Of a stretch of 64,000 bases of DNA, positions 12,889 to 26,179 are shown one piece after another (the stretch's first letter is position 1; each line of letters starts with the position of its first letter). Where the stretch lies: NCBI GenBank assembly GCA_963726255.1, contig CAVSBL010000002.1, positions 1,824,001-1,888,000 of the forward strand, written 5' to 3'. This stretch comes from Candidatus Bathyarchaeota archaeon. GTDB taxonomy: Archaea; Thermoproteota; Bathyarchaeia; 40CM-2-53-6. The notes beneath the pieces are model-generated. The model searched no databases. It had not been told where the DNA came from and worked only from the letters and a program-made list of their open reading frames with translations. Both the position numbers and the translations under genes were made by a program.

Positions 12889-13027
12889 TAAACTGCACGT
12901 GTTGGAATTCATAAAGAATGAAATTTCGCTCGCTCAAATCCCCCAAAATCACTACTGGTCGATGGGGGAAGAAGAGACTTCCTATGACTTGAACGAGAGG
13001 AAAGTTCAAGCAGGAGCCCGAGAGTGG

Positions 13028-13813
13028 TTAACCTCTCCTCTCTCGTCTTAGAAGTTGGAATGAGACTGCATGGGTAAGTGCGCTGACGAGCATGGCTGAA
13101 ACGAACGCTAAGCCCACTCCCCAGTTAGTGATTGTTGCTGAGATGATCAGGAAGAAGATTATGAACGTGAAGGATCCAGCGACCACACCTCTCAGGAGTC
13201 TGATTGCATGCGCGCCCCCTTCAGACCGGTGAGTGAAGACCGCGAGAATCGTGGCGTACACCGGAAAAGGTGTAAGGAGTCCTGTTAACTATGGCCCAAG
13301 CCACTGGGCAACACCCGTAATCAGGAACACTAAAGCAGTGGCGGAAACCATACGCGCAGGGACCTCCCACCACCCCGTTCTCAGCGAGCTTCCCTCCAAG
13401 GTAACGTGAGGCATTAGCAAGAAGGTTATCAGAAGTACTCCGAAGACCGAAACGAAGCCGATTAACAAAGGCAGTTTTGTCGATTGGAGGAATAGTGTGC
13501 AGGCAAAGTAGGCGCATAAACCTGCCAGCAGGCTTAGCCGCCAGAAAAAGCGCGTAGCTGACCAGGTGTAAGCCAATGCGAAGGCGAATACTGAGATGAT
13601 CCCCATCATGATTGCTGCTGAGGCTGCGGAAGCGAAGGCATCTCCCTGTTCCAGGGCTAGGAAGAATGCAACCGGACCTGAAGTTAATGGCAACCCAATG
13701 AGCCAGCCACCAACGATTGGCCCCCATTTGCGGCTTGAGAGACTGACAAGGCCTATGAAAGTTGGGACAAGGAGTAGTTTGAGGAGAAGAATCATCCAGT
13801 CTGCGTAGATCAA
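13028..13813 (-). pseudogene. Multi-pass membrane protein interrupted by an in-frame TAG at 13289-13291
   Basis: ORFs 13289-13813 and 13028-13261 are in the same frame: QWLGP*LTGLLTPFPVYATIL; the internal repeat KWGPIVGGWLIGLP / WLGP*LTGLLTPFP supports one gene. Confidence 0.75.
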
Positions 13814-13853
13814 TTTTGACTACTCGAAGAGGAAGCGTTCGAAGTGACTACTA

Positions 13854-13880
13854 GTGTGTGCGCGCACCATCTGACAGCCC
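13854..13880 (+). repeat. Cassette-boundary site A (left arm plus core; right arm degenerate)
   Basis: GTGTGTGCGCGCA-CCATCT-GACAGCCC. Confidence 0.65.
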
Positions 13881-13911
13881 CGAAGGCGAAAGGGGACCAT
13901 GACACAATGAG

Positions 13912-14607
13912 TCATGTGTCCTTGCCTTCCAGTCGGAGGTTCTCTAAGGTAATGTACATTACTGAATCTACTTCGTGTTTTGAGTACGAACCTACTCGAA
14001 TGGTCTTCTTGAATTGTGGGCTGTCTAGAACCACCGTATGATATTCTCCATTTTCTCCGCATATATCAAGCCCGGTCCGTCTACTGATTTCAATTAGCTG
14101 CTCTACTGAACTCGGGGAGAGATCCAATCCGAGCCATTCTTCTGTGAACCAGGGTTTCTTAACGCAAGAGAAAACTATCTTGAATTTGAGCGAGAGCAGT
14201 TTATTCAGAAGTTCAACCCTGTCTCGATGCCACAAAGGCTTGATGAGGTCAATGCCACAACGCGCACAGCGGTCCACCATCCAATCCGGATCGTGACCAG
14301 TGACTTCTCCAATATCCCCGGTTACCAGCGTACTAATTCCGCGCTTTTCCTTGAGGGAGGAGATTGCATCTTCATAGCCCACATCGAATGGCTCCTCAAC
14401 TTCTAATACGTAATGTGGAAGACCCAAAGCCTGCGCCTGAAGCGCCATGAAGCCGAGAGGGTGAGCAAGAAACATTTCCTGACTCGGAGCGAAAGTGATT
14501 AAACAGTCAATCATACTGCCTAACATTCTTGCTTCATACAGGGCTAGAGAGGAATCCTTGCCCCCGGTCCACGACACCGCCACTCTGGACATGTTGCCAG
14601 AAATCAA
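13912..14607 (-). CDS. Diphthine--ammonia ligase-like (DUF71/PP-loop) ATP-binding protein
   Basis: SWTGGKDS PP-loop, GLDICGENGEYHT. Confidence 0.85.
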   Translation of the reverse strand: MISGNMSRVAVSWTGGKDSSLALYEARMLGSMIDCLITFAPSQEMFLAHPLGFMALQAQALGLPHYVLEVEEPFDVGYEDAISSLKEKRGISTLVTGDIGEVTGHDPDWMVDRCARCGIDLIKPLWHRDRVELLNKLLSLKFKIVFSCVKKPWFTEEWLGLDLSPSSVEQLIEISRRTGLDICGENGEYHTVVLDSPQFKKTIRVGSYSKHEVDSVMYITLENLRLEGKDT

Positions 14608-14663
14608 TCACTTCACAATTTTAGCCTAATGAAGTGTCCAGCTGCGCGCAATTATCCGTCTTT

Positions 14664-14693
14664 TGTGCGTACCCTTAGTGGTGAGCACACACA
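14664..14693 (-). repeat. Cassette-boundary site B
   Basis: minus strand TGTGTGTGCTCA-CCACTA-AGGGTACGCACA. Confidence 0.7.
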
Positions 14694-14749
14694 ATAAAAT
14701 CGGTGACGACGTGAAATAGGGGAAGTAGGCGAGGAAGCCTAAGGAACCG

Positions 14750-15154
14750 TCAGTGTTTCATCTGTTTTGCTAGGTACGCTTCAACTTCTGCGAACTGCTT
14801 CTTGAATTTGTCAAAGTCAATGCTTGCCGCATGTAAGATGGCGCTCCAACCAGCTGTGAATCTTGCGAGAAAAGCGGTCTCGGCTATTTCATCATCGGTA
14901 GCGCCGTTCATTCTGGCGGCTCTTGTGTGGAAATGAATGCAGTACGGACAATGAATTGCAGATGCAACAGCTAACCCCATAAGCTCACGGTACTTGGCGG
15001 GTATCTTGGTTTCCGCGAAGGTGAATTTCTTCATCTCTGCCCATTCGTGGGGAAGTGCATCATGTGGAATCGCTGTGAACTGATCGAGCACTAAGCCCAT
15101 GGTTTTCTTGATGTCGTCAAGAGTATTCTCATATTCTCCCATTCGATATGACAC
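14750..15154 (-). CDS. Carboxymuconolactone decarboxylase/AhpD family protein
   Basis: IPAKYRELMGLAVASAIHCPYCIHFH (CxxC...H) motif. Confidence 0.88.
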   Translation of the reverse strand: MSYRMGEYENTLDDIKKTMGLVLDQFTAIPHDALPHEWAEMKKFTFAETKIPAKYRELMGLAVASAIHCPYCIHFHTRAARMNGATDDEIAETAFLARFTAGWSAILHAASIDFDKFKKQFAEVEAYLAKQMKH

Positions 15155-15300
15155 CTCCTACTCCAATCTGCTTTCGAAGATTCGATTCACATCTCGCGAC
15201 TGTGCAGGAGACATGATGCGAAAGCACGTAACAGCAAGTGCTAGAAAGCAAACTCCACTAAAACGGCGCGCAACTATTTCAGAGTTTTCATTGCTCGTAG

Positions 15301-15329
15301 TCCCGTGGGTATGCTGGTGCGCACACACA
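15301..15329 (-). repeat. Cassette-boundary site C
   Basis: minus strand TGTGTGTGCGCA-CCAGCA-TACCCACGGGA. Confidence 0.8.
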
Positions 15330-15434
15330 GAATAGTCGGCAGCACACTATCTTTTCAACTTCACACCTGTACGTTGGGTGCTCCGAAACTATGGCGGTCA
15401 CATGGCCTATCGCTGACTTCTGTTTCTTTTCAAA

Positions 15435-15773
15435 TTAGGCAGGTGCTCCACAATGGGGGCATTGGTTTAACGTCTCTTCGAAGATTTGTCCGCAATTTCT
15501 GCATCGTATCTTCACAATTACCTCTCGTTGTATCGTTTCCTTCTCCTTGACCATTTCTGGAGCGTCTGCTTCAACTAGCTTCCAGCTCAGGGGCGTAAAG
15601 AGCGATCTTGCCTGAACTGCTAGAACATACCTCGTTGAACATTCCGAACAGACCACGTTAGGCATCGCAACTTCGAGCATGCGCCCGCCGTCTTTGGGGC
15701 ACCGAGACTTCTTGAGTGCCCTTTCGAAGTTTCTTCGCTGTCTTACCAATTGCCAGGACCGAGCACCGAACAT
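15435..15773 (-). CDS. Small zinc-ribbon protein
   Basis: CPKD..CSEC and CRNC..CPHC motifs; TTTATA box 24-29 nt upstream. Confidence 0.7.
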   Translation of the reverse strand: MFGARSWQLVRQRRNFERALKKSRCPKDGGRMLEVAMPNVVCSECSTRYVLAVQARSLFTPLSWKLVEADAPEMVKEKETIQREVIVKIRCRNCGQIFEETLNQCPHCGAPA

Positions 15774-15796
15774 ATATCGTGAATGTTTGGCGGCGC

Positions 15797-15802
15797 TATA
15801 AA
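15797..15802 (-). promoter_or_regulatory. Putative TATA box of the zinc-ribbon gene (leaderless spacing)
   Basis: TTTATA on minus strand 24-29 nt before the ATG at 15773. Confidence 0.5.
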
Positions 15803-15856
15803 TGCCCTAGCATATTTTCTCGGAAACTGGAAGACCCCCAGAACTTTCAGGCATCT

Positions 15857-15888
15857 TCGTGTGCGTACCACTAGAGGTACACACACGA
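15857..15888 (+). repeat. Cassette-boundary site D (near-perfect 13-6-13 hairpin)
   Basis: TCGTGTGCGTA-CCACTA-GAGGTACACACACGA. Confidence 0.75.
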
Positions 15889-15933
15889 GAAAACCTAAAG
15901 GGGGTAACGTACGGTCCCTGTTAGTGTTCAGAG

Positions 15934-16707
15934 TTGGCGGGCCAGGAACGAACCGACATTCCTCTTCTGCATGAATTGCTCCCCGACGACGTAAGGCTTG
16001 GGACCGTTTTCGCAGTTGAATTTGATCCTGTTTCGCACTGGTTTGCCGTAGCGGCAAGTATGGTTGTAAGTTGGGTGAAGAGCGGCCGACGTGCGGGGTG
16101 GGTTGCGATGGCCCGCCCTAGGGAAGACGTCAGAAATGACCTAGCGAGGTTGGGGGTAAATGTGCTTGAGAGCGAGAGAGCTGGAATGTTGCTCGTAGAC
16201 GACTGGCATTCTGCAACTTTAGGCTTGGAGCCCGTCTCTGGCCTTGCCAATGAAATCGTTGAAGGAGAAGGCGGACCTTACAACCGGATACTTTCGCTAA
16301 AGGTTTCGGATTGGAGTGTGCACTTCTTGAAAATGGTGAAGGAGGGTTTGAAGGATGTTGGAGATGACTGGCCTCTCGGTGCACTCGCCATCGCCGATTC
16401 TATTTCACCTGCCCTTAGATTCAACGATGAGAAACCGTACCTTGAGTGGTTAGAAAACAGGGTGAACCCTTGGCAACGACGGAGCATGGGAGTTACATTT
16501 CAAGGGGTAGTTAGCGGGCTTCATTCCGAGTTATTCTACAAGCGGATGGAGAACACTGCTGATGGAGTAATGGACGTGAAGGTAATGGAACGCGAAGACC
16601 AAACCAAGAATTATCTGAGAATCCGCGGTTTCAAAGGTCAAAGGTACGACAGCAGTTGGCATGAGATAGACATCAAATCAAACGGTGAAGCAATTCTGAG
16701 CAGCTGA
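15934..16707 (+). CDS. RAD55/KaiC-like RecA-fold protein with degenerate Walker A
   Basis: IPLLHELLP..G..FAVEFDP, IADSIS, MENTADGVMD, LRIRGFKGQ..W..IDI match the KaiC/RAD55 layout; no GxGKT. Confidence 0.7.
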   Translation: MAGQERTDIPLLHELLPDDVRLGTVFAVEFDPVSHWFAVAASMVVSWVKSGRRAGWVAMARPREDVRNDLARLGVNVLESERAGMLLVDDWHSATLGLEPVSGLANEIVEGEGGPYNRILSLKVSDWSVHFLKMVKEGLKDVGDDWPLGALAIADSISPALRFNDEKPYLEWLENRVNPWQRRSMGVTFQGVVSGLHSELFYKRMENTADGVMDVKVMEREDQTKNYLRIRGFKGQRYDSSWHEIDIKSNGEAILSS

Positions 16708-16718
16708 GCTTCCTTTTC

Positions 16719-16748
16719 GTGTGTGTGCGCACCATTGGACCCACACAC
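16719..16748 (+). repeat. Cassette-boundary site E (consensus-like)
   Basis: GTGTGTGTGCGCA-CCATTG-GACCCACACAC, 11 bp after the stop of the RAD55-like gene. Confidence 0.85.
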
Positions 16749-16762
16749 AAACCTATCAGGAC

Positions 16763-16796
16763 AGTCTGGTGGTGCGAGGAACTGAATTTGAATCGT
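16763..16796 (-). repeat. Site F: tRNA-3'-end-like/core chimera; 33/34 identical to 18464-18497
   Basis: minus strand ACGATTCAAATTCAGTTCCTCGCA-CCACCA-GACT. Confidence 0.8.
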
Positions 16797-16819
16797 GAGC
16801 ACTAGACACACAAGAAACA

Positions 16820-16864
16820 CCCCGGTTCAATTTCTGGGGCTCGCACCATCAGACCCACACACAC
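16820..16864 (+). repeat. Site G: tRNA T-arm/acceptor remnant fused to the right arm
   Basis: CCCCGGTTCAATTTCTGGGGCTCGCA-CCATCA-GACCCACACACAC. Confidence 0.8.
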
Positions 16865-16960
16865 AACCTTAGTTTCGGTCGCACGAAGGTTCTATTCGGT
16901 TCCTGGTAGATCAAAGGAATCAGAGAAATATGGGAAGCGAGCATCCTCAATCGAGTAGGT

Positions 16961-17383
16961 GTGAGAATGAAGGAAATTAGTACGAGCCAAGAGAAGAAAG
17001 AGAAGAAGATTGCACTCAGTTTCTTCAGTTTGATTGCCCCTCCTGAAGGACCGATGGCCGCTTTGCGCATTTTTGATCCAAAATGCAGGCATCACAATCC
17101 TTACAGTGCTCCCGGAATGAAAGCGCTATTCAGGGAGATGGCGAAGGTGCAGCAAGACATGGAGGCGAACGAAATGCCGCGTGATCCAGTCTTCCAAATC
17201 AAGCATGTGCTGGTAGATGGAAAGATGGTCGTCATCCATACTACTCTGCAATCCAAATCGAAAAGAACGAGAGGCTTCAGGCAAATCCACATGTTCCGTT
17301 TCAAGAGGGACAAGGTTGTCGAGTACTGGGATGTAACGCAGAGCGTGCCAAAGGAGGCCAAGTATCCGAAGAACATGTTCTAG
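16961..17383 (+). CDS. SnoaL/NTF2-like domain protein
   Basis: HHNPY..PG, LVDGKMVVIH, HMFRFKRDKVVEYWDVTQ. Confidence 0.85.
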   Translation: MRMKEISTSQEKKEKKIALSFFSLIAPPEGPMAALRIFDPKCRHHNPYSAPGMKALFREMAKVQQDMEANEMPRDPVFQIKHVLVDGKMVVIHTTLQSKSKRTRGFRQIHMFRFKRDKVVEYWDVTQSVPKEAKYPKNMF

Positions 17384-17481
17384 TAAAGTTTCAGAAACAT
17401 CTCCCAATGAATTAGGGAGACTATTTTTTGAAGCAAGGGCTGGCCGTAATCTGAGCCATCTCGTTTGTCGTCGTTCTCATT

Positions 17482-17519
17482 TTTCGTGTGTGTGGGTATA
17501 GTGGTGCGCACACACGAAA
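17482..17519 (-). repeat. Cassette-boundary site H
   Basis: minus strand TTTCGTGTGTGCGCA-CCACTA-TACCCACACACACGAAA; perfect 11-bp outer inverted repeat. Confidence 0.85.
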
Positions 17520-17537
17520 CCTGTTCGACTAGACATC

Positions 17538-17942
17538 CTAGAGTTCCGTGACGATCTCTTTAACAAATTCGAAGTGAGGAATGGTTTTCTCTTCTGCCAA
17601 CGCGATCAGCCCCTCTCGGATTTTCCTCGAACGCTTACTATACTTGGGGAGCAAGGTTGTGAGATAGACTAAGCCAACTGCTAGAATTGATCCTGCAATC
17701 AACAGGATCAAATATGAACGGGTTTCGAGGCTGTTACTCAAAACTCCCTGAATTATTATGCCAAGGGCCACTCCTAACAGTACAGCGAGAACCCCCAAGA
17801 GCCTATTCAACGTCTCAGAGCGAGACTGAACACAAATCTGCAGAACATCAAGCTGCCATCGTCGCTCTTCCAAGTCAGAGTCCAAGTTTCTACCCGAACG
17901 TATTTTGCCTTTTGGGCGTATTTGGTTTCTGTTAAGTCTCAC
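17538..17942 (-). CDS. Hypothetical membrane protein (2 TM)
   Basis: Two hydrophobic helices; start overlaps the stop of the upstream ORF. Confidence 0.6.
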   Translation of the reverse strand: MRLNRNQIRPKGKIRSGRNLDSDLEERRWQLDVLQICVQSRSETLNRLLGVLAVLLGVALGIIIQGVLSNSLETRSYLILLIAGSILAVGLVYLTTLLPKYSKRSRKIREGLIALAEEKTIPHFEFVKEIVTEL

Positions 17943-18282
17943 AGTGGTGTGGTGGTGGGTCAGCTGGTGCTCCCATCAGATCTAATTCTTCCTGTAACGG
18001 TTTTCGCCAAGTTGCTGCCACAAGTGCCACTATGAGTATGAGGAAGAGTACGCCAGCCACAGAAACCAGGTTCTGCTTGATCGGATTTGTTTCCGTCCAG
18101 CTTGTGCTCACGTAGGGCACACAATATTCCGGGCATTCAGGGTCTTGTTCAGTTATGAGAACGGCGACGGGCTGAGACGGTGCAATTACCACCGCTAACG
18201 CTATTATTCCCTCGGCCAGCAGGAGGATTGTGATTACCTTCCACTTTCTCGCAGTCATTTGCCTCTGGGAGCGCCGTTCCAT
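17932..18282 (-). CDS. Hypothetical membrane protein (2 TM, CPEYC loop)
   Basis: Two hydrophobic segments flanking a short Cys-containing loop. Confidence 0.6.
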   Translation of the reverse strand: MERRSQRQMTARKWKVITILLLAEGIIALAVVIAPSQPVAVLITEQDPECPEYCVPYVSTSWTETNPIKQNLVSVAGVLFLILIVALVAATWRKPLQEELDLMGAPADPPPHHCET

Positions 18283-18453
18283 GTTATACGCTGTTGGTTA
18301 TTTCCGTACTTTAACTGAGTGGGTATTCGATTTCGCCCGCTGCTCTAAGGCCGTAATCAATAGCGCATAGTTGGGTCACAGCGCAGGTCTCTCGCCCAGT
18401 CCGGTGCGGAGCTGATCTCTTTCTTCTTCGTCGTCGTTCCTCGTTACTAAGAA

Positions 18454-18497
18454 TGTGCGTGTGAGTCTGGTGGTGCGAGGGACTGAATTTGAATCGT
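18454..18497 (-). repeat. Site I: tRNA-3'-end-like remnant fused to the right arm; right boundary of the array
   Basis: minus strand ACGATTCAAATTCAGTCCCTCGCA-CCACCA-GACTCACACGCACA. Confidence 0.8.
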
Positions 18498-18582
18498 ATC
18501 ATTGGCTTGGGTTCGCGTGGGCTTGCGAATGAAGGTTTAATTGCTTGTGCAGGCGTCCACCGCATACGGGAAGGCTATTACT

Positions 18583-18762
18583 TTGTCTAGTGCGCGTGAA
18601 AAGCGGCGTAAACGTGAAGCGCCTATGCCTGCGGCAAGTGCAGGTTTGCTCCGGTTCTTCGAGGAGGATACGCCGGGGATTAAGGTTCCGCCGGAAGTTG
18701 TGGTAATGTTCTCCATAGGCCTCGTCGCGGTAAGCCTCTTCATGTACTTGACATTCAAGTAG
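18583..18762 (+). CDS. secG: Preprotein translocase subunit Sec61beta
   Basis: SAGLLRFFEEDTPGIKVPPEVV plus one C-terminal TM; likely TTG start at 18583. Confidence 0.9.
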   Translation: MSSAREKRRKREAPMPAASAGLLRFFEEDTPGIKVPPEVVVMFSIGLVAVSLFMYLTFK

Positions 18763-19777
18763 CGACTTCTCTGAAGTCCAAGAGTTTCGTCTGGGCTACG
18801 ACTGGAAGCGCACTCGCCCTAATGCCCAGCCTACGTTCTATCATTGTCGGCAGCACGTCCGTATAACCGGTGAAAACGTACACTTTCTTCGGGTTTACGC
18901 TGCTCACAAACTGGATCAACTGCTCGTAGTCCGCATGGCTGCTCAATGGGAAGGCGGCGTATCGGCGGAAAGCCATCCGCAACGCCCAACCAGTCGCTAC
19001 GGCGCGCGAAGCATTACGCGGCATTCGCTCCGAGCTGGTGGTCACGAAAATGCAGCCGCCCGCTTTCAACGCGTGCTTACCGTCCGCAGTGGAGGAGTCT
19101 AAGTAATCGAGTGGGAGGCCGTTCTGGTCATGGGCACTGTTGGCGCGGGCTATGCCGACACTGCAGACGACGGGAACCTTCGTGTACACGTTGAACAAGC
19201 GAACTAGGTCTTGTGGTTTTCCGGAAGAGTAGACTTGGAAGGTTGGAACTTTTCCTTCCTTCAGTTCAGTCGTGGTCCATCTAATGATGTCAGCGTAGAT
19301 TGTGCTCCGTTTCGGAAAAACGTACGACGGATGCCCATATGTTGCTTCAATAACTAAGTAATCGCATGACTTAGCCTCAGCCGCGCGCGTTGTCAACGTA
19401 TCCACACAATTAATGTCCCCCGTGTAAACGGCCGTGAACTCAGGAGTGATGACTTCGAATTGGCAGGAACCTAACATATGGCCGGCGTCAAGGGCTCTGA
19501 CTTCAACACCATCGAAGTGAATTGAGTCGCCAATTTTCAAGGTATGTGCGTTCTTAACTTGGCGGTTTTGAAGCGATTCGAAAATTCGAAGCGTCTCAGG
19601 CGTAGAATGCTTCTTGGCGGGTGTGGTGAAGCCGTACGTGTGGTCAGAGTGCGCGTGGGTTACGAACACGTCCCAACCGTCGCCTAACGGCCTGCCGCTC
19701 GTAGGGTCGAAAATCAAACGTGAGGGTCCAGTATTGAAGGATATTCCGTTGGCCCACCCGATTCTTTCCTGCCGCAA
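18755..19777 (-). CDS. MBL-fold (beta-CASP-like) nuclease, RNA processing type
   Basis: THAHSDH, AGHMLGS, YTGD, EATYG, LSSHAD. Confidence 0.88.
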   Translation of the reverse strand: MRQERIGWANGISFNTGPSRLIFDPTSGRPLGDGWDVFVTHAHSDHTYGFTTPAKKHSTPETLRIFESLQNRQVKNAHTLKIGDSIHFDGVEVRALDAGHMLGSCQFEVITPEFTAVYTGDINCVDTLTTRAAEAKSCDYLVIEATYGHPSYVFPKRSTIYADIIRWTTTELKEGKVPTFQVYSSGKPQDLVRLFNVYTKVPVVCSVGIARANSAHDQNGLPLDYLDSSTADGKHALKAGGCIFVTTSSERMPRNASRAVATGWALRMAFRRYAAFPLSSHADYEQLIQFVSSVNPKKVYVFTGYTDVLPTMIERRLGIRASALPVVAQTKLLDFREVAT

Positions 19778-20047
19778 GGACAGCTTCGCTCTTGACTCAA
19801 CGCTTCAACGCTACGCCAACTTCTGGGCGATACGGCTTCTTCCCCGAATGTGTCTATTAGCGCTTTGTCCGCTCTCTTCAAATCTTAGCCGATGATTCGC
19901 GCGTTCCTTCGTGGAGCCGTCTCATCACATGACAATGGATGTGACCTAAAGCTTGGACAGGTGGGTGAAGACGCATCTTGAGAATGCACTCTATGCATCG
20001 GTCGGCTATGCGATGATTTGAATGCACCAACGCCGGGCGTTCTTTTC

Positions 20048-21604
20048 TCATTTCGTTAGCGTTCTCTTCCTCAGGTAGGCTCGCCAGGTCATGGCTAACT
20101 TCGCAGGGTCTTCTAGGTTGGCGTCGGGTATTCTAGCGATCGAGGAATTGTGAGGGGCGGTCTTCACTAGTTCTGGATTTGAGTACGCTTCCTTGGAGAT
20201 TTCGGCTAATACTGCAACCCAATAGTCAATGTCCGCCTTCGAATATGTCTCGCAGGGTTCCGGAGTGAAGGGTTCAGGCACGACCCAGGGATGGTGGCTA
20301 AGCCAATAGGATTGGACGCCATAGTCTACGACCCTACGTATGACGTCTTGGGCTCCAACTCCCGTTTCTTCGCGTAGCTTCTCTAGGCTGTACCTGATTT
20401 GGTCGAGGCGCCTATTCGTTTTGTATGGTTTGGTTACGCCTGTAACTGTGAGTAGTTTCTTCTCAAGGTAGTTGTTATTTATCATGGAGATTTCTGCCAC
20501 TTCCCTTAATCCGTCTGCCCCCATGCTCATTGCCCAAGCGTAAGCCCTCAACACGATCTGGACATTGCCATAGAAGTCGCGGACTTTGCCGATGCTGTGG
20601 GGCCTATCATAATCAAGGTGGTACCTATCTCCATCGAAGGTTACCACAGGAACTGGAAGGAATTTTGCTAATTCCTGTTTGACACCAACGGCTCCGCATG
20701 CGGGCCCGTAAGACCCGTGCGGCGATGAGAATGTTTTGTGAAGGTTGAAGAAGCACATGTCGAACCCGGACTCTTTAGCCCTTGAGACGCCCAACAGAGC
20801 GTTTGCGTTTGCTTGGTCGTACGCGCACAGACCGCCTGCCTCGTGCACCATCTTGGTCCACTCGTCAATCTCGGGGTTGAAGATCCCTGTGTCCTCAGGG
20901 TTTGTGGTCATCAGCCCAGCTGTATGCTTGGAAACTGCAGCCTTCAGCGACTCCGTATTCGGAAACCCGGTTTCCCCATCGGGGTAGAGTGTTATGACCT
21001 TGAACCCCGCGGTTGCTGCGGTCGCGGCGCTGCTGGGGTGAGAGAAGATAGTCGTGATTATTTCGTCCCGCTGTCCAAGTTCACCATTCAACTCGTGGAA
21101 TTTTCTAATTATGCATGCGTTGGTATAGGCAGCTTCGTTGCCGCCTCCAGCATGGAAGACAAACTCGTCCAACCCGGAGATTTCTCTCAGGAAGACATAC
21201 CCAAACTCGTAAACGATCTTCAAAACGCCCTGAATCGTTTCTTCATCCTGAAGCGGATGGATTTCGGCAAGTTCTTTCACTAGATCTTCGTTGACCTTGG
21301 GGCTGTATTTCATCGTGCACGTTCCTTCTCCTAAGTCGATGTTGAAATCCATTCCAAGCGTCTGCTGGGAAAGGCGCAGGTAGTGTCTCAGAACGTGGGG
21401 CTGGGAGAGTTCAGGTAGGCTAGGCGGCTGTTTCCTTCGCATGGTGGTTGGAACAAACGCCATGGCATCGCCGACCGCGGCCCTAACCTCTTCTTCAACT
21501 TCTGGGATGCGGATCCCTCTTTCCCCTTTGCGTCCCATCGACATTATGACGGGTTCGCTCCATACTGGTGCGTGGTATCTTCTCGGGGATTCCTGAGCTT
21601 TCAT
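20048..21604 (-). CDS. gcvPB: Glycine dehydrogenase (decarboxylating) subunit 2
   Basis: GTCTMKYSPK, PLP motif NLHKTFSSPHG. Confidence 0.9.
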   Translation of the reverse strand: MKAQESPRRYHAPVWSEPVIMSMGRKGERGIRIPEVEEEVRAAVGDAMAFVPTTMRRKQPPSLPELSQPHVLRHYLRLSQQTLGMDFNIDLGEGTCTMKYSPKVNEDLVKELAEIHPLQDEETIQGVLKIVYEFGYVFLREISGLDEFVFHAGGGNEAAYTNACIIRKFHELNGELGQRDEIITTIFSHPSSAATAATAGFKVITLYPDGETGFPNTESLKAAVSKHTAGLMTTNPEDTGIFNPEIDEWTKMVHEAGGLCAYDQANANALLGVSRAKESGFDMCFFNLHKTFSSPHGSYGPACGAVGVKQELAKFLPVPVVTFDGDRYHLDYDRPHSIGKVRDFYGNVQIVLRAYAWAMSMGADGLREVAEISMINNNYLEKKLLTVTGVTKPYKTNRRLDQIRYSLEKLREETGVGAQDVIRRVVDYGVQSYWLSHHPWVVPEPFTPEPCETYSKADIDYWVAVLAEISKEAYSNPELVKTAPHNSSIARIPDANLEDPAKLAMTWRAYLRKRTLTK

Positions 21605-23010
21605 TTTGATACCTCCTTCAACGCGTCGACAAGTCTCAGTATGTCGTCTTTTGTATGGGTCTCAGTGACGCAGTACAAGCTGCTGTTTCCGAGTTCTGGA
21701 AATTCCCGGAAGATGTCTTTTCCTCCGAAGATTCCTCGTTTCAACAATTGTCTGTTTACTTCAGAAACGCGCGTTTTGCTGTCGAATGTTACCACGAATT
21801 CCTTGAAGAAGGTTTGAAATGGGATCTTGACGCCCTTTACTTCAGCCAACTTTCGGGCCGCGTAATGCGATTTCCGCAATATCGTCTCTCCGAGTTCCTT
21901 CATACCCGCGGGACCCATGAGCGCCAGGTAGACTGCGCTAACTATCGTCCACAGCCCAGCGGCCGTTCCAACCCAGTCTTTCGCTTTATCTCTACCAATG
22001 TACGAGGTTCTCTCGGCCATGCAATAGGCGAATGCGCATTCGCCTCGTACGGTTTCAGTAATGGTGACTAGGTGTGAGGGATGTTCGCCAACGAACTTCT
22101 TTTCGTCGGGGCAGGCTAGAAAACCTGCAAGGCTACCGCCACAAAACATGTGGTTGCCGAGGGGTTGAATCTCACCGCAGACAATATCCGCGCCATAATC
22201 CGAGGGAGGCGAAAGCACACCCAAGGAAATGGGGTCTACGCCAACTATACATTCGGCACCGCTTTCATGGGCAGTCTTCGAGATTTCCTGGCCGTTGGCT
22301 TCGATAACCCCGAGGTATGACGGGTTCTCGAAGTAAACGCCCGCTGTCTTAGACGAAATTTCTCTCCTGAGGTGGTTGAGGTCGAGCATGCCGGTCTTGG
22401 GATCGTTGCTGATTGTTTTGACGTCGATGTGGTTTGGCATTGCTGCCGGGCCGCAAAAGTTGCGTATTATTGCGAATCGGTCTGGGCTTATGGTGCGTGA
22501 GACGAGAACCTCTCTTCTGCCCGTTATCCTTGACGCCATTCTAATCGCGTTTCCGGCTGAGGCGCCCCAATCGTATGTGGGAAGGCCGACTACATCCATT
22601 CCCACCAGTTCCCCAATCATACTCTGAAACTCGAAGAATGCTTGATGCTTGCCTAAGTCTGAGTATTCGTCGCCGCCATAGGCGGTCAGAAATTCCGCTC
22701 TTCGAGCAATCTCATCGCAGACGGCTGGCACATAATGCTTCCAGCAACCTGCCCCAAGAAAACTCAGGTTCTTGTTGCAATCGATGTTTCTCGATAAGAT
22801 TTGTTCCACATGCCGTCTTAGGTCGGCTTCTGCGGCGAGGGGCTTCGGGAGGTTCATTCGGTGTTTGAGCCTTAGCCTGTCGGGAATTATTTGAGCGTAG
22901 AGTGCCTCACTGTTCTCCACCCCGATTTCTTTGAGCATCTCCTGCTTTACTTCAGAAACGGAGTTGGGCATGTACGGATGGGCGCTGTGTTCGGTCAGTC
23001 TGAACACCAA
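21601..23010 (-). CDS. gcvPA: Glycine dehydrogenase (decarboxylating) subunit 1
   Basis: HPYMPNS, SFLGAGCWKHYVP, FEFQSMI, LYCVTETHT. Confidence 0.9.
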   Translation of the reverse strand: MVFRLTEHSAHPYMPNSVSEVKQEMLKEIGVENSEALYAQIIPDRLRLKHRMNLPKPLAAEADLRRHVEQILSRNIDCNKNLSFLGAGCWKHYVPAVCDEIARRAEFLTAYGGDEYSDLGKHQAFFEFQSMIGELVGMDVVGLPTYDWGASAGNAIRMASRITGRREVLVSRTISPDRFAIIRNFCGPAAMPNHIDVKTISNDPKTGMLDLNHLRREISSKTAGVYFENPSYLGVIEANGQEISKTAHESGAECIVGVDPISLGVLSPPSDYGADIVCGEIQPLGNHMFCGGSLAGFLACPDEKKFVGEHPSHLVTITETVRGECAFAYCMAERTSYIGRDKAKDWVGTAAGLWTIVSAVYLALMGPAGMKELGETILRKSHYAARKLAEVKGVKIPFQTFFKEFVVTFDSKTRVSEVNRQLLKRGIFGGKDIFREFPELGNSSLYCVTETHTKDDILRLVDALKEVSK

Positions 23011-23033
23011 GTGTTGAAGGCGGTGGATTCCTC

Positions 23034-24182
23034 TTAACTGTCGCGCACATATGGTTCTGACGGGTTTGATATCCTATATATTACGCTGCGGCCGTAGCCA
23101 GTTAGAATTCTGGTGTAGCCGCTCAGTTCGGCGTCGAGCTCGGGATCACCTGTATCGACCAGTAGAGGTGCGCCTTTCAGGGAGGCAAGCTTGTTTGGTG
23201 TGGCGACGATGATTATGTTCTCCTTGCCGACGCGCCTGATGATTTGAGGGCTGATTTGCTGGTTGCCCCGACCGAAAATGAACCCCTGCCCACCAATGAC
23301 CGTGACAATTATCTTCGCTTTTCTTCTCTCTTCCAACAGTTCCAAGAGTTTGGCTTCATTCGCGTCCGAAGCAGCCAGCTTTCGGTTTAGGACTGCGTCG
23401 ACGCCGAGGAGAGTTTTCTTCAACCCAAGCTTGTCCATGATGGGTTTCGTCGTTGTCCCCGGCCCGAGGACGTAGAGGCAATCTTGTTGCATGTTCTCTA
23501 CAATGTCGGTTGCGATATCAATTAGCGAAGAATCCTCCGTGGTGGGGCTGCTCCCCTTTGCACTCTGAACGAGCGCCCTATCAAAGGGGACCTTCATGTA
23601 TCCGTAAAGCTTCGCTGAAACCCGGTTCTCCCTGAAGGCTGCTTCGTCTATGTCCATGACCTCCATATCCCGGAGTTGCATTGGTTGGCGCAACAGAAAG
23701 TTAGCGGCCAAATCGCCTGCGCTTCTCGGGTTCACCGCGAACACAGCGGAATGAATCTTGACTCCCGCAGGGATCCCTATCACAGGAACCTTGAGGTGAA
23801 CTACATCGCAAAGGTCCCTTGCAGTTCCATCGCCGCCGGCGAAGAGGATTAGGTCAACCTTTAGGCCCAGCATTTCGCGAGCTGCGCTCTTTGTATCGTC
23901 TGAACTTGTTTTCCCTTTGGCTATCGAACCTATCACACGTGGGTTGAATCCGGTGACCCTCGCTTCGTCTTCTCCCATCTCGGCGGGATACGTAACCAAT
24001 TCCAAAGAATCCCTGATCCTGAGGATTCTCTGAAGCGCTTCAATCGATCTAGTCGGAGATGTTGGGGTCGCTCCAAGCTCTATTGCCTTCTGAAGGACAG
24101 TTAGGCCGTCGCTTCCTTTCAGCCCCACTTTGCCCCCCATTCCCGCGATCGGGTTCACGATAAAACCTAGAAGCTTTTTCAT
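23034..24182 (-). CDS. ATP-NAD kinase family protein
   Basis: IVNPIAGMGG, GGDGTARD, IPAGVKIHS, GGQGFIFGRGNQQ. Confidence 0.85.
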   Translation of the reverse strand: MKKLLGFIVNPIAGMGGKVGLKGSDGLTVLQKAIELGATPTSPTRSIEALQRILRIRDSLELVTYPAEMGEDEARVTGFNPRVIGSIAKGKTSSDDTKSAAREMLGLKVDLILFAGGDGTARDLCDVVHLKVPVIGIPAGVKIHSAVFAVNPRSAGDLAANFLLRQPMQLRDMEVMDIDEAAFRENRVSAKLYGYMKVPFDRALVQSAKGSSPTTEDSSLIDIATDIVENMQQDCLYVLGPGTTTKPIMDKLGLKKTLLGVDAVLNRKLAASDANEAKLLELLEERRKAKIIVTVIGGQGFIFGRGNQQISPQIIRRVGKENIIIVATPNKLASLKGAPLLVDTGDPELDAELSGYTRILTGYGRSVIYRISNPSEPYVRDS

Positions 24183-24538
24183 TGGCTGAACCTCGGAGCG
24201 TTGTCGCGGCTGCATTAGTATCCGCTCGCAGCGCCTACCTCTAATGAACGTAGTCTGCGTTTATCAGGCGTGACTCTCGCAAATTGATATGATAGTGCAG
24301 TTTTGCGAAGTGCTGTCACTTCGTTGCATGAACAGTAGACCGTAAACTGGCGTTGGAAAATCACGATTTGAGGTAAAAAGCCTTGAATACCATAAGACAT
24401 CTTGAATCGAAATCACCTAATCCTAATGAGTACGAGCATCCAAATTTGAAACGTCGTGAAGAGGCATTTTTCATGTGTGACTCCCCGGGGACTCATGGTC
24501 AAAACGGACCTAGTTCGGAAAAATCCTCGCGCGGGCAG

Positions 24539-25162
24539 ATGAGATTGCTGCCGAGGGAACACGGCGCAACCGCGATCTGGTTCTCCTCGGTGTTGCTCGC
24601 CTTTGGAATGCTCCGGGAGCCGCCATGGACCCCTGGTGCCGTTGTTTTCCTAGCAGCCTGCGTACTCGCGCTGGTCCTCATAGGACGGCTCACCAGCGGC
24701 TCTATAGTCGTCGTCCGCTTGGAGCGGAATCGAACTCTGCTCCCGGTTCTTTCTGGTCTCCTGACCTTGATCGTCCCGTTAGGGCAGATAATCATGGTCG
24801 GACAGCTCTCCCTTCCAGTCCTTGCCGCCTGGCTCATCTTCCTGACTTATTGTTCATCAGGAGTGGTGTACACGCGAGACTTGGTTCGTTCGGTGCTGAA
24901 GGAGGTGTCACCCACGTGGACCAGCTTCAATCTCTCCGTAGTCTTCATTGTTTCCGAGGTTGTCACACTAAACGCTGTCAACTGGCTTTCCATCGCCACC
25001 GTAGCCATCATTGTGCCGTTGACCGTTTACCGCGTCGTCGTTCTGTCGCTAATTCAACGAAAAAGTTCCTCTAAGATAGAACGTATTCGCGGAGTGGGCT
25101 TCGCGCAGACCGGGAACCTGATAGCCGCGACCATTATCCTCGCCTTGGTTTCGAAACTCTGA
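24539..25162 (+). CDS. YwiC-like membrane protein
   Basis: N-terminal LPREHGA motif and several TM helices; likely ATG at 24539. Confidence 0.65.
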   Translation: MRLLPREHGATAIWFSSVLLAFGMLREPPWTPGAVVFLAACVLALVLIGRLTSGSIVVVRLERNRTLLPVLSGLLTLIVPLGQIIMVGQLSLPVLAAWLIFLTYCSSGVVYTRDLVRSVLKEVSPTWTSFNLSVVFIVSEVVTLNAVNWLSIATVAIIVPLTVYRVVVLSLIQRKSSSKIERIRGVGFAQTGNLIAATIILALVSKL

Positions 25163-25264
25163 AACAGCCCCTACGCCGACTCCCCTACGAAGCTCGCAAG
25201 AATAGGCTCAGCATGAGTGTGCTTGAGGTGAGCGTGTCCGGACCGTCGTCGGTTCGTTCTAAAA

Positions 25265-25291
25265 GTGTGTGTGCGCACCATTAGACCCACA
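25265..25291 (+). repeat. Isolated copy J of the cassette-boundary site
   Basis: GTGTGTGTGCGCA-CCATTA-GACCCACA. Confidence 0.85.
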
Positions 25292-25374
25292 GTGAAAGTC
25301 ATAAACTATTTACGGAAAATAGGTGTAGAAAAATGGGGGTAACTGGGAGTGTATGTCCCAAGTTACTTTCGGCT

Positions 25375-25545
25375 TTATGCCTTAACGTTAGGCTGGTACG
25401 CGAATAGTGTTTCGCTTCTCCAGATGCCATCGGTATGGCCTAGTTGTTCGACCGTAGATTTCATGAGTCGCTCATAGTTCTGAGCCTGGAAGTCTCTGGT
25501 TGATTGGTCTTCTCTCGGCCAAGGGACTCCTTGCACTTCTTAGCC
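25375..25545 (-). pseudogene. Decayed Lrp/AsnC ligand-binding-domain fragment
   Basis: Minus strand reads ...FQAQNYERLMKSTVEQLGHTDGIWRSETLFAYQPNVKA*; the upstream part is degenerate. Confidence 0.4.
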
Positions 25546-25600
25546 AATCGATCTTAGGGACAACTGATGATGGGTCGTTGCGGGGACTAATCTCTGCCGT

Positions 25601-26179
25601 TTAGGGGTGACCGTACTTTACGGTTAGAAGTTCCCGTTTGGTGAGGCGTCGTTTCTTCACTTTCCCGGGCTTGGGTGAGACGATTGCGCTGTTGCCGAAG
25701 GGGTCCTTGAGTGTAAGCGTGAAGTGGGGCTTCTCCTTAGCCAGGCGAAATTGCTTGAGCATCTTCTCGCCCTTTGCGAGGCGTTTCCTTGTTGCCGTTG
25801 AGAGCATCATGGTCAACGCGTCTTGAATTCGGTCCAGGATGCCTTCAACGTTTGAAATGTAACCTTCACTATACGGGCCAGGCGTTATGGTCGCCCCGAA
25901 CTCTGGAATACTCACCGTCGCCGTCCCTGATTTTATGACGTGCATGTTCAAGTCTTCAACCGAACTAATTTTAGCGGTTAGGGCAATGGGTTCACGTTCC
26001 GTCAGCGTCATTACGTCCGTATGTCTGTAGCCGCATTTCTCGCAAGTGACTACGCTCATGAGGACGGAGCCAAAATGTTCTACCTCATATTCCGTCTGGG
26101 TGGTGAGCATGGATTCAGTGTCGCAGCTAGGGCACCGCAGGGTGGCGGTGCGTACGTCGATGGGAGCAGTCAAGGCCAA
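25601..26179 (-). CDS. ZPR1 zinc-finger domain protein
   Basis: CPSC..CEKCGYR, ITPGPYSEGYISNVEGIL, DPFGNSAI. Confidence 0.92.
   Translation of the reverse strand: MALTAPIDVRTATLRCPSCDTESMLTTQTEYEVEHFGSVLMSVVTCEKCGYRHTDVMTLTEREPIALTAKISSVEDLNMHVIKSGTATVSIPEFGATITPGPYSEGYISNVEGILDRIQDALTMMLSTATRKRLAKGEKMLKQFRLAKEKPHFTLTLKDPFGNSAIVSPKPGKVKKRRLTKRELLTVKYGHP

Follow-up and report, generated by a model that had tools for sequence, protein, structure and literature searches.

Three sites in a 64,000-nucleotide stretch of a Candidatus Bathyarchaeota genome (the window), designated F, G and I, are members of a lineage-specific family of junction sites of ~45 bp, and the chances appear about even that they are att-type scars and substrates left and used by site-specific integration into the 3' ends of tRNAs. 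The site family as a whole is probably the record of an enzyme that integrated at tRNA ends and that the genome no longer carries.

The site family and its distribution

About 78 sites are found in the 2.4 Mb genome, G000 (nhmmer, E<=0.1), F, G and I among them. Each is laid out around the core CGCACCA, which is followed by three variable bases and a right arm, GACCCACACAC, and preceded either by an inverted (GT)n arm or by an 18-nt copy of a tRNA segment that reaches from T-loop to acceptor. By their left halves, 35 of the sites are palindromic (GTGTGTG), 27 are T-loop-type, with a tRNA-spaced block running to the CCA, and 16 are of other kinds. Palindromic sites form stems of 8-11 bp in ~40 nt, and T-loop-type sites are neither palindromic nor folding. 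Left halves, cores and right halves are combined in all mixes across the sites, as expected of recombinant products. The array at 1357373-1359489, for example, consists in order of a T-loop-type site, a full palindromic site, a palindromic site with a degraded right arm and a left-arm-only site, with the spacer GCT in the first three and GTT in the last; two others, at 871089 and 871705, are identical to each other.

A 21-mer of the site is present in 17 of 18 congeners and in one of 12 genomes outside the genus, and its reversed control is absent everywhere. Copy number among congeners runs from 0 to 35, and the left-half pattern reaches 55 matches per congener, real tRNA ends being included in this count. 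Exact T-loop-type sites in genome contigs fall, at 26 of 27 loci, in records titled Bathyarchaeia or Bathyarchaeota. The sites are intergenic (with crude ORF calls taking up 90% of the contig, 59 of the 78 fall outside them), often lie within tens of bases of stop codons and show no orientation bias relative to flanking genes (18, 17, 22 and 21 in the four classes). They occur in clusters of 2-12 and bound small accessory genes, mostly single ones (SnoaL, cupin, glyoxalase, CMD), and tandem ~50-nt units without cargo are common. Full-text searches of the literature did not reveal a description of the repeat; such att sites might be listed in the supplementary tables of PMC6563490 and PMC9668308.

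Sites F, G and I and their array

A first-pass annotation of the window had described three sites as a tRNA-3'-end-like block joined to the right arm, and a search of the whole window agrees with it. The pattern GRTTCAAWTT-N6-CTCGCACCA, with at most one mismatch, has only three matches, at 16770-16794 (minus strand), 16824-16848 (plus) and 18471-18495 (minus), compared with a mean of 0.00 in shuffled windows, none of 100 of which reaches three. All three sites resemble the final 25 bases of a tRNA joined to the CACACAC arm, and their spacing is alike and that of a tRNA: a 7-nt T-loop-like word, 12 nt, A and CCA. Site F (16763..16797, minus) comprises the T-loop-to-CCA block, the core CGCACCA, CCA and GACT, and continues into unique sequence without a right arm. 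Site G (16819..16867, plus) is a full T-loop-type site, reading GGTTCAATTT-N-GCT, CGCACCA, TCA and GACCCACACACAC (nhmmer E 7e-9). Site I (18453..18501, minus), the first site of the array, is T-loop-type with a diverged right arm, GACTCACACGCAC, and lies ~40 nt upstream of the Sec61-beta gene; an ortholog occupies the same position in G033 and G004, and none is found in G015, G014, G011 or G017. The direct repeat claimed for F and I is equally well founded, as 33 of 34 aligned bases are identical, from ACGATTCAAATT through CCAGACT, in copies 1.7 kb apart, an arrangement characteristic of att sites. Past this point the two part, F into its unique flank and I into its diverged arm. Alone, the 7-mer CGCACCA is not overrepresented (14 window matches against 8.3 expected; 3 of 100 shuffles reach 14), and the palindromic full-site pattern is, with seven matches at four places against 0.19 expected.

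In the window, ten sites occupy a span of 4.7 kb, in accordance with the definition of a CALIN (at least two sites <4 kb apart bounding ORFs), and the cargo between them extends over 13912..18282. At the far end of the array, a left-arm-only site (13844..13875, plus; GTGTGTGCG, CGCACCA, then unique sequence) precedes a diphthamide-synthase-like gene (13912-14607), which is separated by a degenerate palindromic-type site (14663..14692, minus) from a CMD-family gene (14750-15154). These are followed by site A (15303..15335, minus), with GTGTGTG, the core and a partial right arm, TACCCACGGGA, by a Zn-ribbon gene (15435-15773), and by a palindromic-type site with the core CGTACCA (15857..15886, plus) upstream of a KaiC/Rad55-like gene (15934-16707). 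Directly after the stop codon of this KaiC-like gene stands site E (16708..16755, plus), a full palindromic site (TTTTCGTGTGTGTG, CGCACCA, TTG, GACCCACACAC) with an 8-bp DNA hairpin. Beyond F and G, another full palindromic site (17480..17520, minus), the 11-bp hairpin of which has a z of -3.95 and is equalled by 0 of 200 shuffles, lies between a SnoaL-like gene (16961-17383) and two small membrane ORFs (17538-18282). A degenerate site (17955..17984, minus; AGCACCA, GCT, GACCCACCACC; nhmmer E 0.38) falls within the 3' end of ORF 17932-18282, and an outlier of palindromic type, its right arm partial, is found at 25252..25291 (plus). When 12 ORFs from the window were compared with six relative loci (tblastn), ORF 17932-18282 was the only cargo gene matched, and only in strain G033.

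Cassette variation between strains and in metagenomes

Cassette content is unlike between close strains. Relative to a ~95% identical strain, 10 of 51 breakpoints are no more than 30 nt away from a site, compared with a null mean of 1.9 and a maximum of 8 in 2000. A KaiC-like cassette, 93% identical in the two genomes, is carried at different site-bounded loci of G000 and G033, and G033 holds it exactly where G000 has a single site; the T-loop-type left half travels with cassettes in this strain comparison. Collinearity of G000 with G033 stops at the degenerate site at 17955..17984, where the strains part right after GCACCAG. The apparent exchange point varies, lying right after the core at two places and to the right of TACCCACA at the KaiC-like cassette locus, and some strain differences span whole arrays, with borders away from sites.

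The population is present in sediment, wetland and peat samples. Metagenome contigs skip, invert or duplicate segments that end at sites, and do so more often than chance. The joint 15861->16808, present in two runs (X1 and X2; side 57), skips a 946-bp segment of which the site at 15857..15886 is the left edge; a second, 14693->16825 (X2; side 40), involves the site at 14663..14692, and a third joins 16750 and 16867 on opposite strands. Joints of this kind end at the edges of site G. Many of the metagenome joints, with short sides of 23-28 nt, may stem from other repeat copies.

Search for a recombinase

The G000 genome (98.5% complete) has no match to PF00589, PF00239, PF01797 or PF00078, the PF00589 search having recovered 14 of 14 positive controls, and no tyrosine, serine or Y1 recombinase, Y1/RAYT gene or reverse transcriptase was found in it. 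PF07282 identified two TnpB-like genes far from sites and one weak match below the cut-off. No recombinase was found among 89 near-site proteins, or among the six ORFs of a G033 island that adjoins a tRNA-like gene. Integrase number does not track site number, as G028 (17 sites) and G007 (15 sites) have no integrase and G009 has three integrases and no site. Congeners do carry tyrosine integrases, of 416-421 aa in G002 and G018, beside the tRNA end ...CGGCGGCCGCACCA, the end that carries the core, so that the expectation of an integrase near such a tRNA is correct as to position and fails as to the arm: the flanks of these integrases read TTTTACCGGTA... or CATTTCAGAC..., not the CACACAC arm. 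At the integrase-bearing tRNA loci of G011 and G014, no att repeat longer than 16 nt was found. The only adjacent integrase-site case is a virus-like contig in which an integrase gene (positions 1240-2331; 363 aa) and a full T-loop-type site are 250 nt apart; among homologues of this integrase, one of 19 loci has even a weak site nearby, and its single viral relative has no site. The proposal of a tRNA-targeting integrase is thus divided, as junctions of tRNA and arm in relatives (see below) speak for it, and the integrase-free genome and the unmatched counts speak against it.

Relationship to tRNA 3' ends

The strongest competing explanation is that the family represents an intergenic repeat, selfish or structural (REP- or MITE-like), with its own spreading route, in which case cassette shuffling would be a by-product of homologous recombination between copies, and the tRNA-like half an ancestral capture without a present role. 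We consider this plausible, though rather unlikely. The intergenic location without orientation bias, the hairpins of palindromic members, the wide range of copy number, the common cargo-free units, the lack of a detected recombinase in G000, the breakpoints at differing places in the repeat and the indels that carry whole arrays all agree with it. REP/BIME elements, which are associated with RAYT transposases, are short, clustered, intergenic imperfect palindromes, and the present family shares this form, is likewise lineage-specific, occurs in tens to hundreds of copies and marks rearrangement hotspots. However, no Y1 (HUH) RAYT-type transposase gene was found here (PF01797, 0 matches), and the TnpB-like genes are remote from the sites. 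One third of the copies are not palindromic, and the T-loop-type members have no fold. In addition, one-directional runs of sites do not fit the paired inverted ends of MITE-type elements, and no target-site duplication was seen at two strain indels, the only ones examined base by base. A specific tie to tRNA 3' ends also sets the family apart.

At least six real tRNA genes in the genome terminate in CGCACCA (acceptor, discriminator A and encoded CCA), as the first-pass annotation had anticipated; real tRNA genes of this genome encode CCA, and the closest real tRNA end agrees with the T-loop block consensus at 20 of 25 positions (hand count). An intact tRNA running into the right arm, which that annotation had proposed to look for, occurs in relatives. 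In G011, an Rfam-confirmed full-length tRNA (42.4 bits) runs directly into CTG and GACCCACACAC, and junctions of a tRNA-type end with the arm are also found in G032, in G033 and, in three copies, in G013. The joining of an intact tRNA to an element arm, by which an attL is recognized, is seen in relatives and at none of the three sites F, G and I. G000 and G033 have a tRNA-like gene in common, at which the genomes part exactly after ...GCCGCACCA, that is, after CCA; the G000 flank is absent from G033, and the G033 contig ends before the far end of the island. For nine of 76 sites, a real tRNA end is found no more than 1 kb away (null mean 2.4, maximum 8 in 2000 draws). Such exact junctions in several genomes and the enrichment near tRNA genes are predicted by integration at tRNA ends, and they argue against a repeat with its own spreading route, as does the observation that the left half is conserved in columns that target tRNAs share and variable in those where they differ.

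It had also been claimed that F, G and I are chimeras at decayed tRNAs in place, i.e., host tRNA genes or remnants hit by a resident integrase, leaving an attL of which the tRNA part has since decayed. The tRNA 3'-end geometry of all three sites, the near T-arm of site G (CCCGG/TCTGG) and the true tRNA-arm junctions of relatives accord with this claim, but it is already largely contradicted and is highly unlikely to be correct. ARAGORN detects no tRNA gene in the window, and none of the 27 T-loop-type sites is preceded by a tRNA body, their consensus losing all conservation to the left of GG-TTCAAAT. The putative T-stem pairing upstream of the T-loop amounts to 0.0 kcal/mol in F and I, with only G pairing (6 bp), and among 30 copies there is no co-variation of the T-stem strand with its upstream partner (mean -3.50 with its own versus -3.37 with swapped partners; permutation p 0.36). 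All copies of the block have T after the loop, whereas every real tRNA found here has C; owing to this T and to the unpaired stem strand, the block is unable to replace a tRNA end. In relatives without the array, there is no tRNA at the position of site I next to Sec61-beta. Moreover, the left half is a propagated module, present in 27 of 78 sites and moving with cassettes in a genome without an integrase. Given this propagation and the lack of a tRNA at site I in array-less relatives, the T-loop-type form, previously taken for attL-like, fits an element-borne attP or a tandem junction better.

Because ARAGORN gave only seven intron-free tRNAs in the genome (35 with introns allowed), split or permuted tRNA halves were considered; this idea was dropped, as conservation does not extend to the left of the T-loop word. 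Also rejected was retro-copying from tRNA CCA ends, no reverse transcriptase having been found and the acceptor part being constant where tRNAs would differ. It is likewise highly unlikely that the sites act as RNA, with tRNA-like ends or hairpins for processing, stabilising or termination between genes, since the resemblance of the block to T-loop, acceptor strand and CCA, the hairpins of palindromic members and the many sites near stop codons are outweighed by the absence of any Rfam match in 13000-26000 at E<=1, including the RF00005 cloverleaf, by a tRNA-like half without pairing partner or covariation, by folding of F, G and I no better than shuffles (hairpin z +1.28 for F and -0.62 for G, with no hairpin in either) and by the lack of an orientation preference.

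Comparison with known mobile systems

Archaeal and bacterial tyrosine integrases reportedly integrate elements at tRNA genes, form tandem arrays and allow the 'gene capture' of elements that have lost their integrase (Williams 2002; She et al. 2001-2004). As in such elements, including those treated for Thaumarchaeota in PMC6563490, the identity block of the present sites is the 3' part of a tRNA, from T-loop to CCA, with an intact tRNA at one junction (here, in relatives) and partial copies at others; direct repeats bracket the insert (F and I), reuse of sites builds arrays, and islands adjoin tRNA genes. Unlike these elements, the family has ~78 copies per genome, most of them far from any tRNA, bounds single small genes and not elements the size of plasmids or viruses, lacks an integrase in arrays or genome, and possesses an additional arm that is constant, GACCCACACAC, and a palindromic form as its second kind of site, while its block cannot substitute for a tRNA end.

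Similarities also exist with archaeal integrons and integrase-less cassette arrays (CALINs), as presented in PMC9668308. In both cases, short conserved sites <4 kb apart bound mostly single, small and diverse accessory genes without an integrase nearby, and cassette content differs between close strains. The core sites of integrons are RYYYAAC (R'') and GTTRRRY (R'). Neither motif appears in the consensus built from the 78 sites, which are 35-45 nt long in contrast to 57-141 nt for attC and do not form the imperfect hairpin of that length, the T-loop-type sites not folding at all. In further contrast to integron arrays, cassettes occur here in both orientations, and the core is the 3' end of a tRNA.

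Proposed mechanism and implications

Under integration at tRNA ends, small elements with one or few accessory genes and no integrase would join the chromosome at a tRNA ending in CGCACCA, producing the tRNA-plus-right-arm form seen in relatives, and would also join at existing sites, giving rise to arrays. The tRNA-like left half would be an identity block carried by the element. Full T-loop-type sites such as G or I would then represent attP-like or tandem junctions, and F, with its block, core and unique flank, a distal attR-like end, so that the F/I direct repeat would bracket a 1.7-kb multi-cassette insert. We infer that the exchange would be the work of a site-specific recombinase, one supplied in trans or active in the past, with crossover at the core or just to its right. 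A more far-reaching proposal, which we offer tentatively and consider less probable than its being wrong, is that this Bathyarchaeia lineage has its own integron-like cassette system, in which integrase-less cassettes of one to a few genes move between the 3' ends of tRNAs and dozens of chromosomal arrays through a ~45-bp site with a tRNA-mimicking half (T-loop to CCA), by a recombinase that is outside the families searched or supplied only in trans by viruses or plasmids.

For practical purposes, the site sequence provides a probe of 21-45 nt for mobile cassettes and their cargo in Bathyarchaeia metagenomes, and the palindromic site, the T-loop-type site and the tRNA end are defined substrates for candidate integrases. 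The site family also accounts for assembly breaks of these genomes at such places. Even if the family were REP-like, it would be a new archaeal family of this kind with a clear role in genome rearrangement. If integration at tRNA ends is the correct explanation, a widespread soil and sediment archaeal lineage would move single accessory genes between strains and loci via a tRNA-end-derived site, in a cassette economy comparable to that of integrons, built on tRNA-targeting integration and with an enzyme absent from most host genomes.

Sites F, G and I belong to a repeat family

Site F (16763-16797, minus strand), read in its own direction, is ACGATTCAAATTCAGTTCCTCGCACCA-CCA-GACT followed by unique sequence. 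Site I (18453-18501, minus strand) has one change relative to F and continues with CACACGCAC, and site G (16819-16867, plus strand) reads GGTTCAATTTCTGGGGCTCGCACCA-TCA-GACCCACACACAC. The pattern of left half and core occurs at three places in the window, namely F, G and I (expected 0.00; 0 of 100 shuffles reach three), F and I are identical at 33 of 34 bases, and all three sites keep the spacing of a tRNA 3' end, with a T-loop word of 7 nt, 12 nt, A and CCA. These results confirm the existence and form of the sites as described in the first-pass annotation, and the absence of a full tRNA at all three also stands, as both ARAGORN and Rfam are blank there. As single strands, F, G and I fold no better than shuffles, unlike palindromic sites, which contain hairpins of 8-11 bp.

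The source genome (2.42 Mb, 5 contigs, 51% G+C) contains 55 occurrences of CGCACCA-nnn-GACCCACACAC with at most two changes, and a profile built from this word identifies 78 sites at E ≤ 0.1. The left half is GTGTGTG in 35 of these, forming a palindrome around a 14-nt asymmetric centre, a T-loop-type block, GGTTCAAATT-N5-GC(C/T), in 27, and of another kind in 16. Every mixture is present, with either left half next to a unique right side and the right arm next to unique left sides. Given these mixtures and the two main left halves, the form of F, G and I, previously described as a chimera, is one of two standard forms in the family.

Of 18 congeners searched, 17 contain the family 21-mer, as does one of 12 genomes outside the genus; a reversed 21-mer has zero matches in every genome searched. 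The T-loop-type block has as wide a distribution and consists of constant flanks around five hypervariable bases. Exact full T-loop-type sites occur at 27 loci of a species-representative collection, 26 of them in records titled Candidatus Bathyarchaeia or Bathyarchaeota, and for the cargo gene a protein atlas points to this lineage as well. Locus L098 carries an exact T-loop-type site in a bin titled beta-proteobacterium, where the contig is probably archaeal and mis-binned. In addition, the motif GACCCCAATTTACCGGTACATATAA, which resembles the flank after tRNAs at integrase-bearing elements, closely precedes T-loop-type sites at 4 of 26 loci of other genomes (L085, L089, L093, L096) and lies about 35 nt upstream of a site near 2286281 on contig C2 of the source genome.

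The left half and real tRNA ends

In the source genome, ARAGORN predicts 7 intron-free tRNA genes, rising to 35 when introns are permitted; Rfam predicts 17. These genes are unusually intron-rich, and several ARAGORN "introns" span 0.5-2.8 kb, probably representing false joins to partial tRNA copies. CCA is encoded within the tRNA genes and at least six end in CGCACCA, so the site core is a genuine tRNA end. The base after the loop is always T in the repeat block and C in real tRNAs here, and the best match of the block to any present tRNA end is 20/25 (hand count from the tRNA-end listing). Within the block, the columns that are conserved make up the T-loop word and the end, features common to the target tRNAs, and most of those that vary are positions at which tRNAs differ from one another, a distribution that would fit an enzyme reading tRNA genes as DNA.

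The tRNA parts had been described as decayed. However, the site consensus shows no conservation upstream of the T-loop-type block, and across 30 copies a permutation test of pairing between the block and upstream sequence gave p 0.36, no excess over chance. Upstream of the Sec61-beta gene, at a distance of about 40 nt, the window has site I. The near-identical strain G033 and the relative G004 carry a site at the same spot, and four other relatives (G015, G014, G011, G017) have neither site nor tRNA there. The blocks are thus propagated modules rather than tRNA genes that decayed in place.

Of the 76 sites that remain when those forming tRNA ends are left out, nine are no more than 1 kb from the 3' end of a real tRNA (null mean 2.4, maximum 8). 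An intact tRNA directly before nnnGACCCACACAC, an arrangement raised in the first-pass annotation, does occur in relatives: G011 has a full-length tRNA (Rfam 42.4 bits) with the terminus ...GGCGGCCGCACCA, and CTG-GACCCACACAC comes directly after it. Junctions of this kind are also present in G032, G033 and G013 (three times), and a weaker one in G016.

A conserved tRNA-like gene ending ...GCCGCACCA (C2 of the source genome, about 500769-500900, minus strand; L147:2900-3031; L153:1380-1500) is called by neither ARAGORN nor Rfam; from a CCC reading of its anticodon loop, our guess is an intron-bearing tRNA-Gly(CCC). Contig C198 of G033 is collinear with the source genome (95.5%) to the last base of this gene, after which G033 has CTA, then the arm, then unique genes over at least 4.5 kb, and the source genome has CATTTCAGACTAG.... 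In G002, G018 and G003, this source-genome flank forms the left end of elements that carry an integrase, and in G018 only the last 14 nt of the tRNA stand before it. Two different element types therefore use the same 3' end in different genomes, making it a shared hotspot, and the placement of tyrosine integrases of the genus beside it suggests that it serves them as an att core. Partial tRNA 3' fragments ending ...CCCACCCCCGGCGCCA were also seen at three places on C2 (124267-124294, 1249141-1249168 and 1891487-1891514), 92-249 nt from sites. The two of three that were scanned with Rfam (L034 and L038) were not called as full tRNAs, and in G002 an integrase element follows a full tRNA end matching these fragments.

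Cargo and variation at the sites

Crude ORF calls cover 90% of the contig, and 59 of the 78 sites fall outside them. The 78 sites favour no orientation towards neighbouring genes (18, 17, 22 and 21 in four classes). The sites are clustered, 2-12 per cluster, and the genes between them are small and diverse, including diphthamide-synthase-like, CMD, Zn-ribbon, KaiC/Rad55-like, SnoaL, cupin, glyoxalase and PadR genes and TBP paralogues. In a KaiC/Rad55-like paralogue family without the Walker A motif, five of eight close copies have a site at most 55 nt away (copies at 15934-16707 in the window and at 923636-924151, 1249289-1250113, 1774623-1775375 and 1890475-1891257 on C2), and a virus-like contig, G035, has a further KaiC-like copy after its site (L065:2872-3351). 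Three TBP paralogues adjoin sites (L034:6096-6665, L036:918-1514, L041:8698-9375), placing basal transcription factor copies among the cassette cargo.

Strain G033, 95-97% identical to the source genome, is collinear with the window from 21565 down to 17964, diverges directly after GCACCAG of a degenerate site, and is without the other window cassettes. A KaiC-like cassette is 93% identical in the two genomes and sits at different loci: in G033 it occupies the exact place of a single lone site of the source genome (438872), and at the cassette locus of the source genome G033 has another segment, 2 kb long and framed by direct repeats of CGCACCAACATACCCACA. Across four 20-kb regions, 10 of 51 internal breakpoints fall within 30 nt of a site (null mean 1.9, maximum 8 in 2000 draws). 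Two regions count against this pattern: a 2.2-kb segment that includes five sites and a 9.5-kb island whose end is 7 nt away from one each occur or are missing as a unit, with borders outside sites.

Public metagenome contigs likewise vary at the sites. Contigs from two runs of one study skip from 15861 to 16808 (side 57), omitting the window's KaiC-like cassette, the palindromic site E and site F; the joint holds an inverted palindromic site. Other joints connect 14693 to 16825 (side 40) and the arms of E and G on opposite strands (side 36), and there is a tandem step of 42 nt at G; the remaining joints, whose sides measure just 23-28 nt, may derive from other repeat copies.

Further differences were also seen. 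In G004, G015 and G014, sequence matching the window from 25608 onward directly abuts that matching 19804, so the block containing the glycine-cleavage P and NAD kinase genes (19805-25607) is placed differently here; metagenome contigs from two runs skip 24265 to 25603. A 378-bp segment of C2 (876321-876698; L037:14321-14698) is not in the collinear G033 contig; the 42 bp at its end are also found on five or more other G033 contigs, so it may be a different small mobile element.

Origin of the sites

The first-pass annotation proposed a tRNA-targeting integrase, and congeners do have tyrosine integrases next to the tRNA-like end ...GCCGCACCA; none was found in the source genome, and integrases do not track the sites. 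Searches of the source genome gave no match for tyrosine recombinases, serine recombinases, Y1 transposases or reverse transcriptases, and no recombinase was found among 89 scanned proteins neighbouring sites. Two TnpB-like genes exceed the family cut-off, both far from sites, and a third match is weak and below it. Tyrosine integrases occur in 15 of 18 congeners, out of step with site counts: G028 and G007 have 17 and 15 sites and no integrase, and G009 has three integrases and zero sites. Integrases adjoining tRNAs carry other flanks, not the site arm. On the virus-like contig, the single T-loop-type site lies 250 nt from a gene for a 363-aa integrase that contains a zinc ribbon, a lead rather than a link; 19 genus loci with homologues and one viral relative have at most one weak site.

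We give about even credence to serial site-specific integration of small integrase-less elements, which would join at tRNA ends finishing in CGCACCA and at existing copies of the site, with the tRNA-like block as an identity block carried by the element. The three sites had all been read as attL; under serial integration, G and I would instead be attP-like or tandem junctions and F an attR-like end. Serial integration accounts most simply for the tRNA geometry and the tRNA-arm junctions, for the F/I direct repeat and the arrays, and for the variants among strains and populations. A REP- or MITE-like repeat shuffled by homologous recombination is rather unlikely and nevertheless a serious rival, since the exchange point within sites is not constant, whole arrays move as well, and no enzyme among those searched tracks the sites. 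In-place decay of tRNAs and an RNA role are each very improbable.

Insertion at tRNA ends, tandem arrays and the capture of integrase-less elements are familiar phenomena, described in part in PMC6563490, and integron cassette arrays without an integrase are known, in archaea too (PMC9668308). A literature search covering the main texts of papers found no description of this repeat. In contrast to these known systems, about 80 sites per genome bound single genes here, a scale and single-gene grain that appear to be new, as do the constant CACACAC arm, the two site forms and the tRNA-mimic half.
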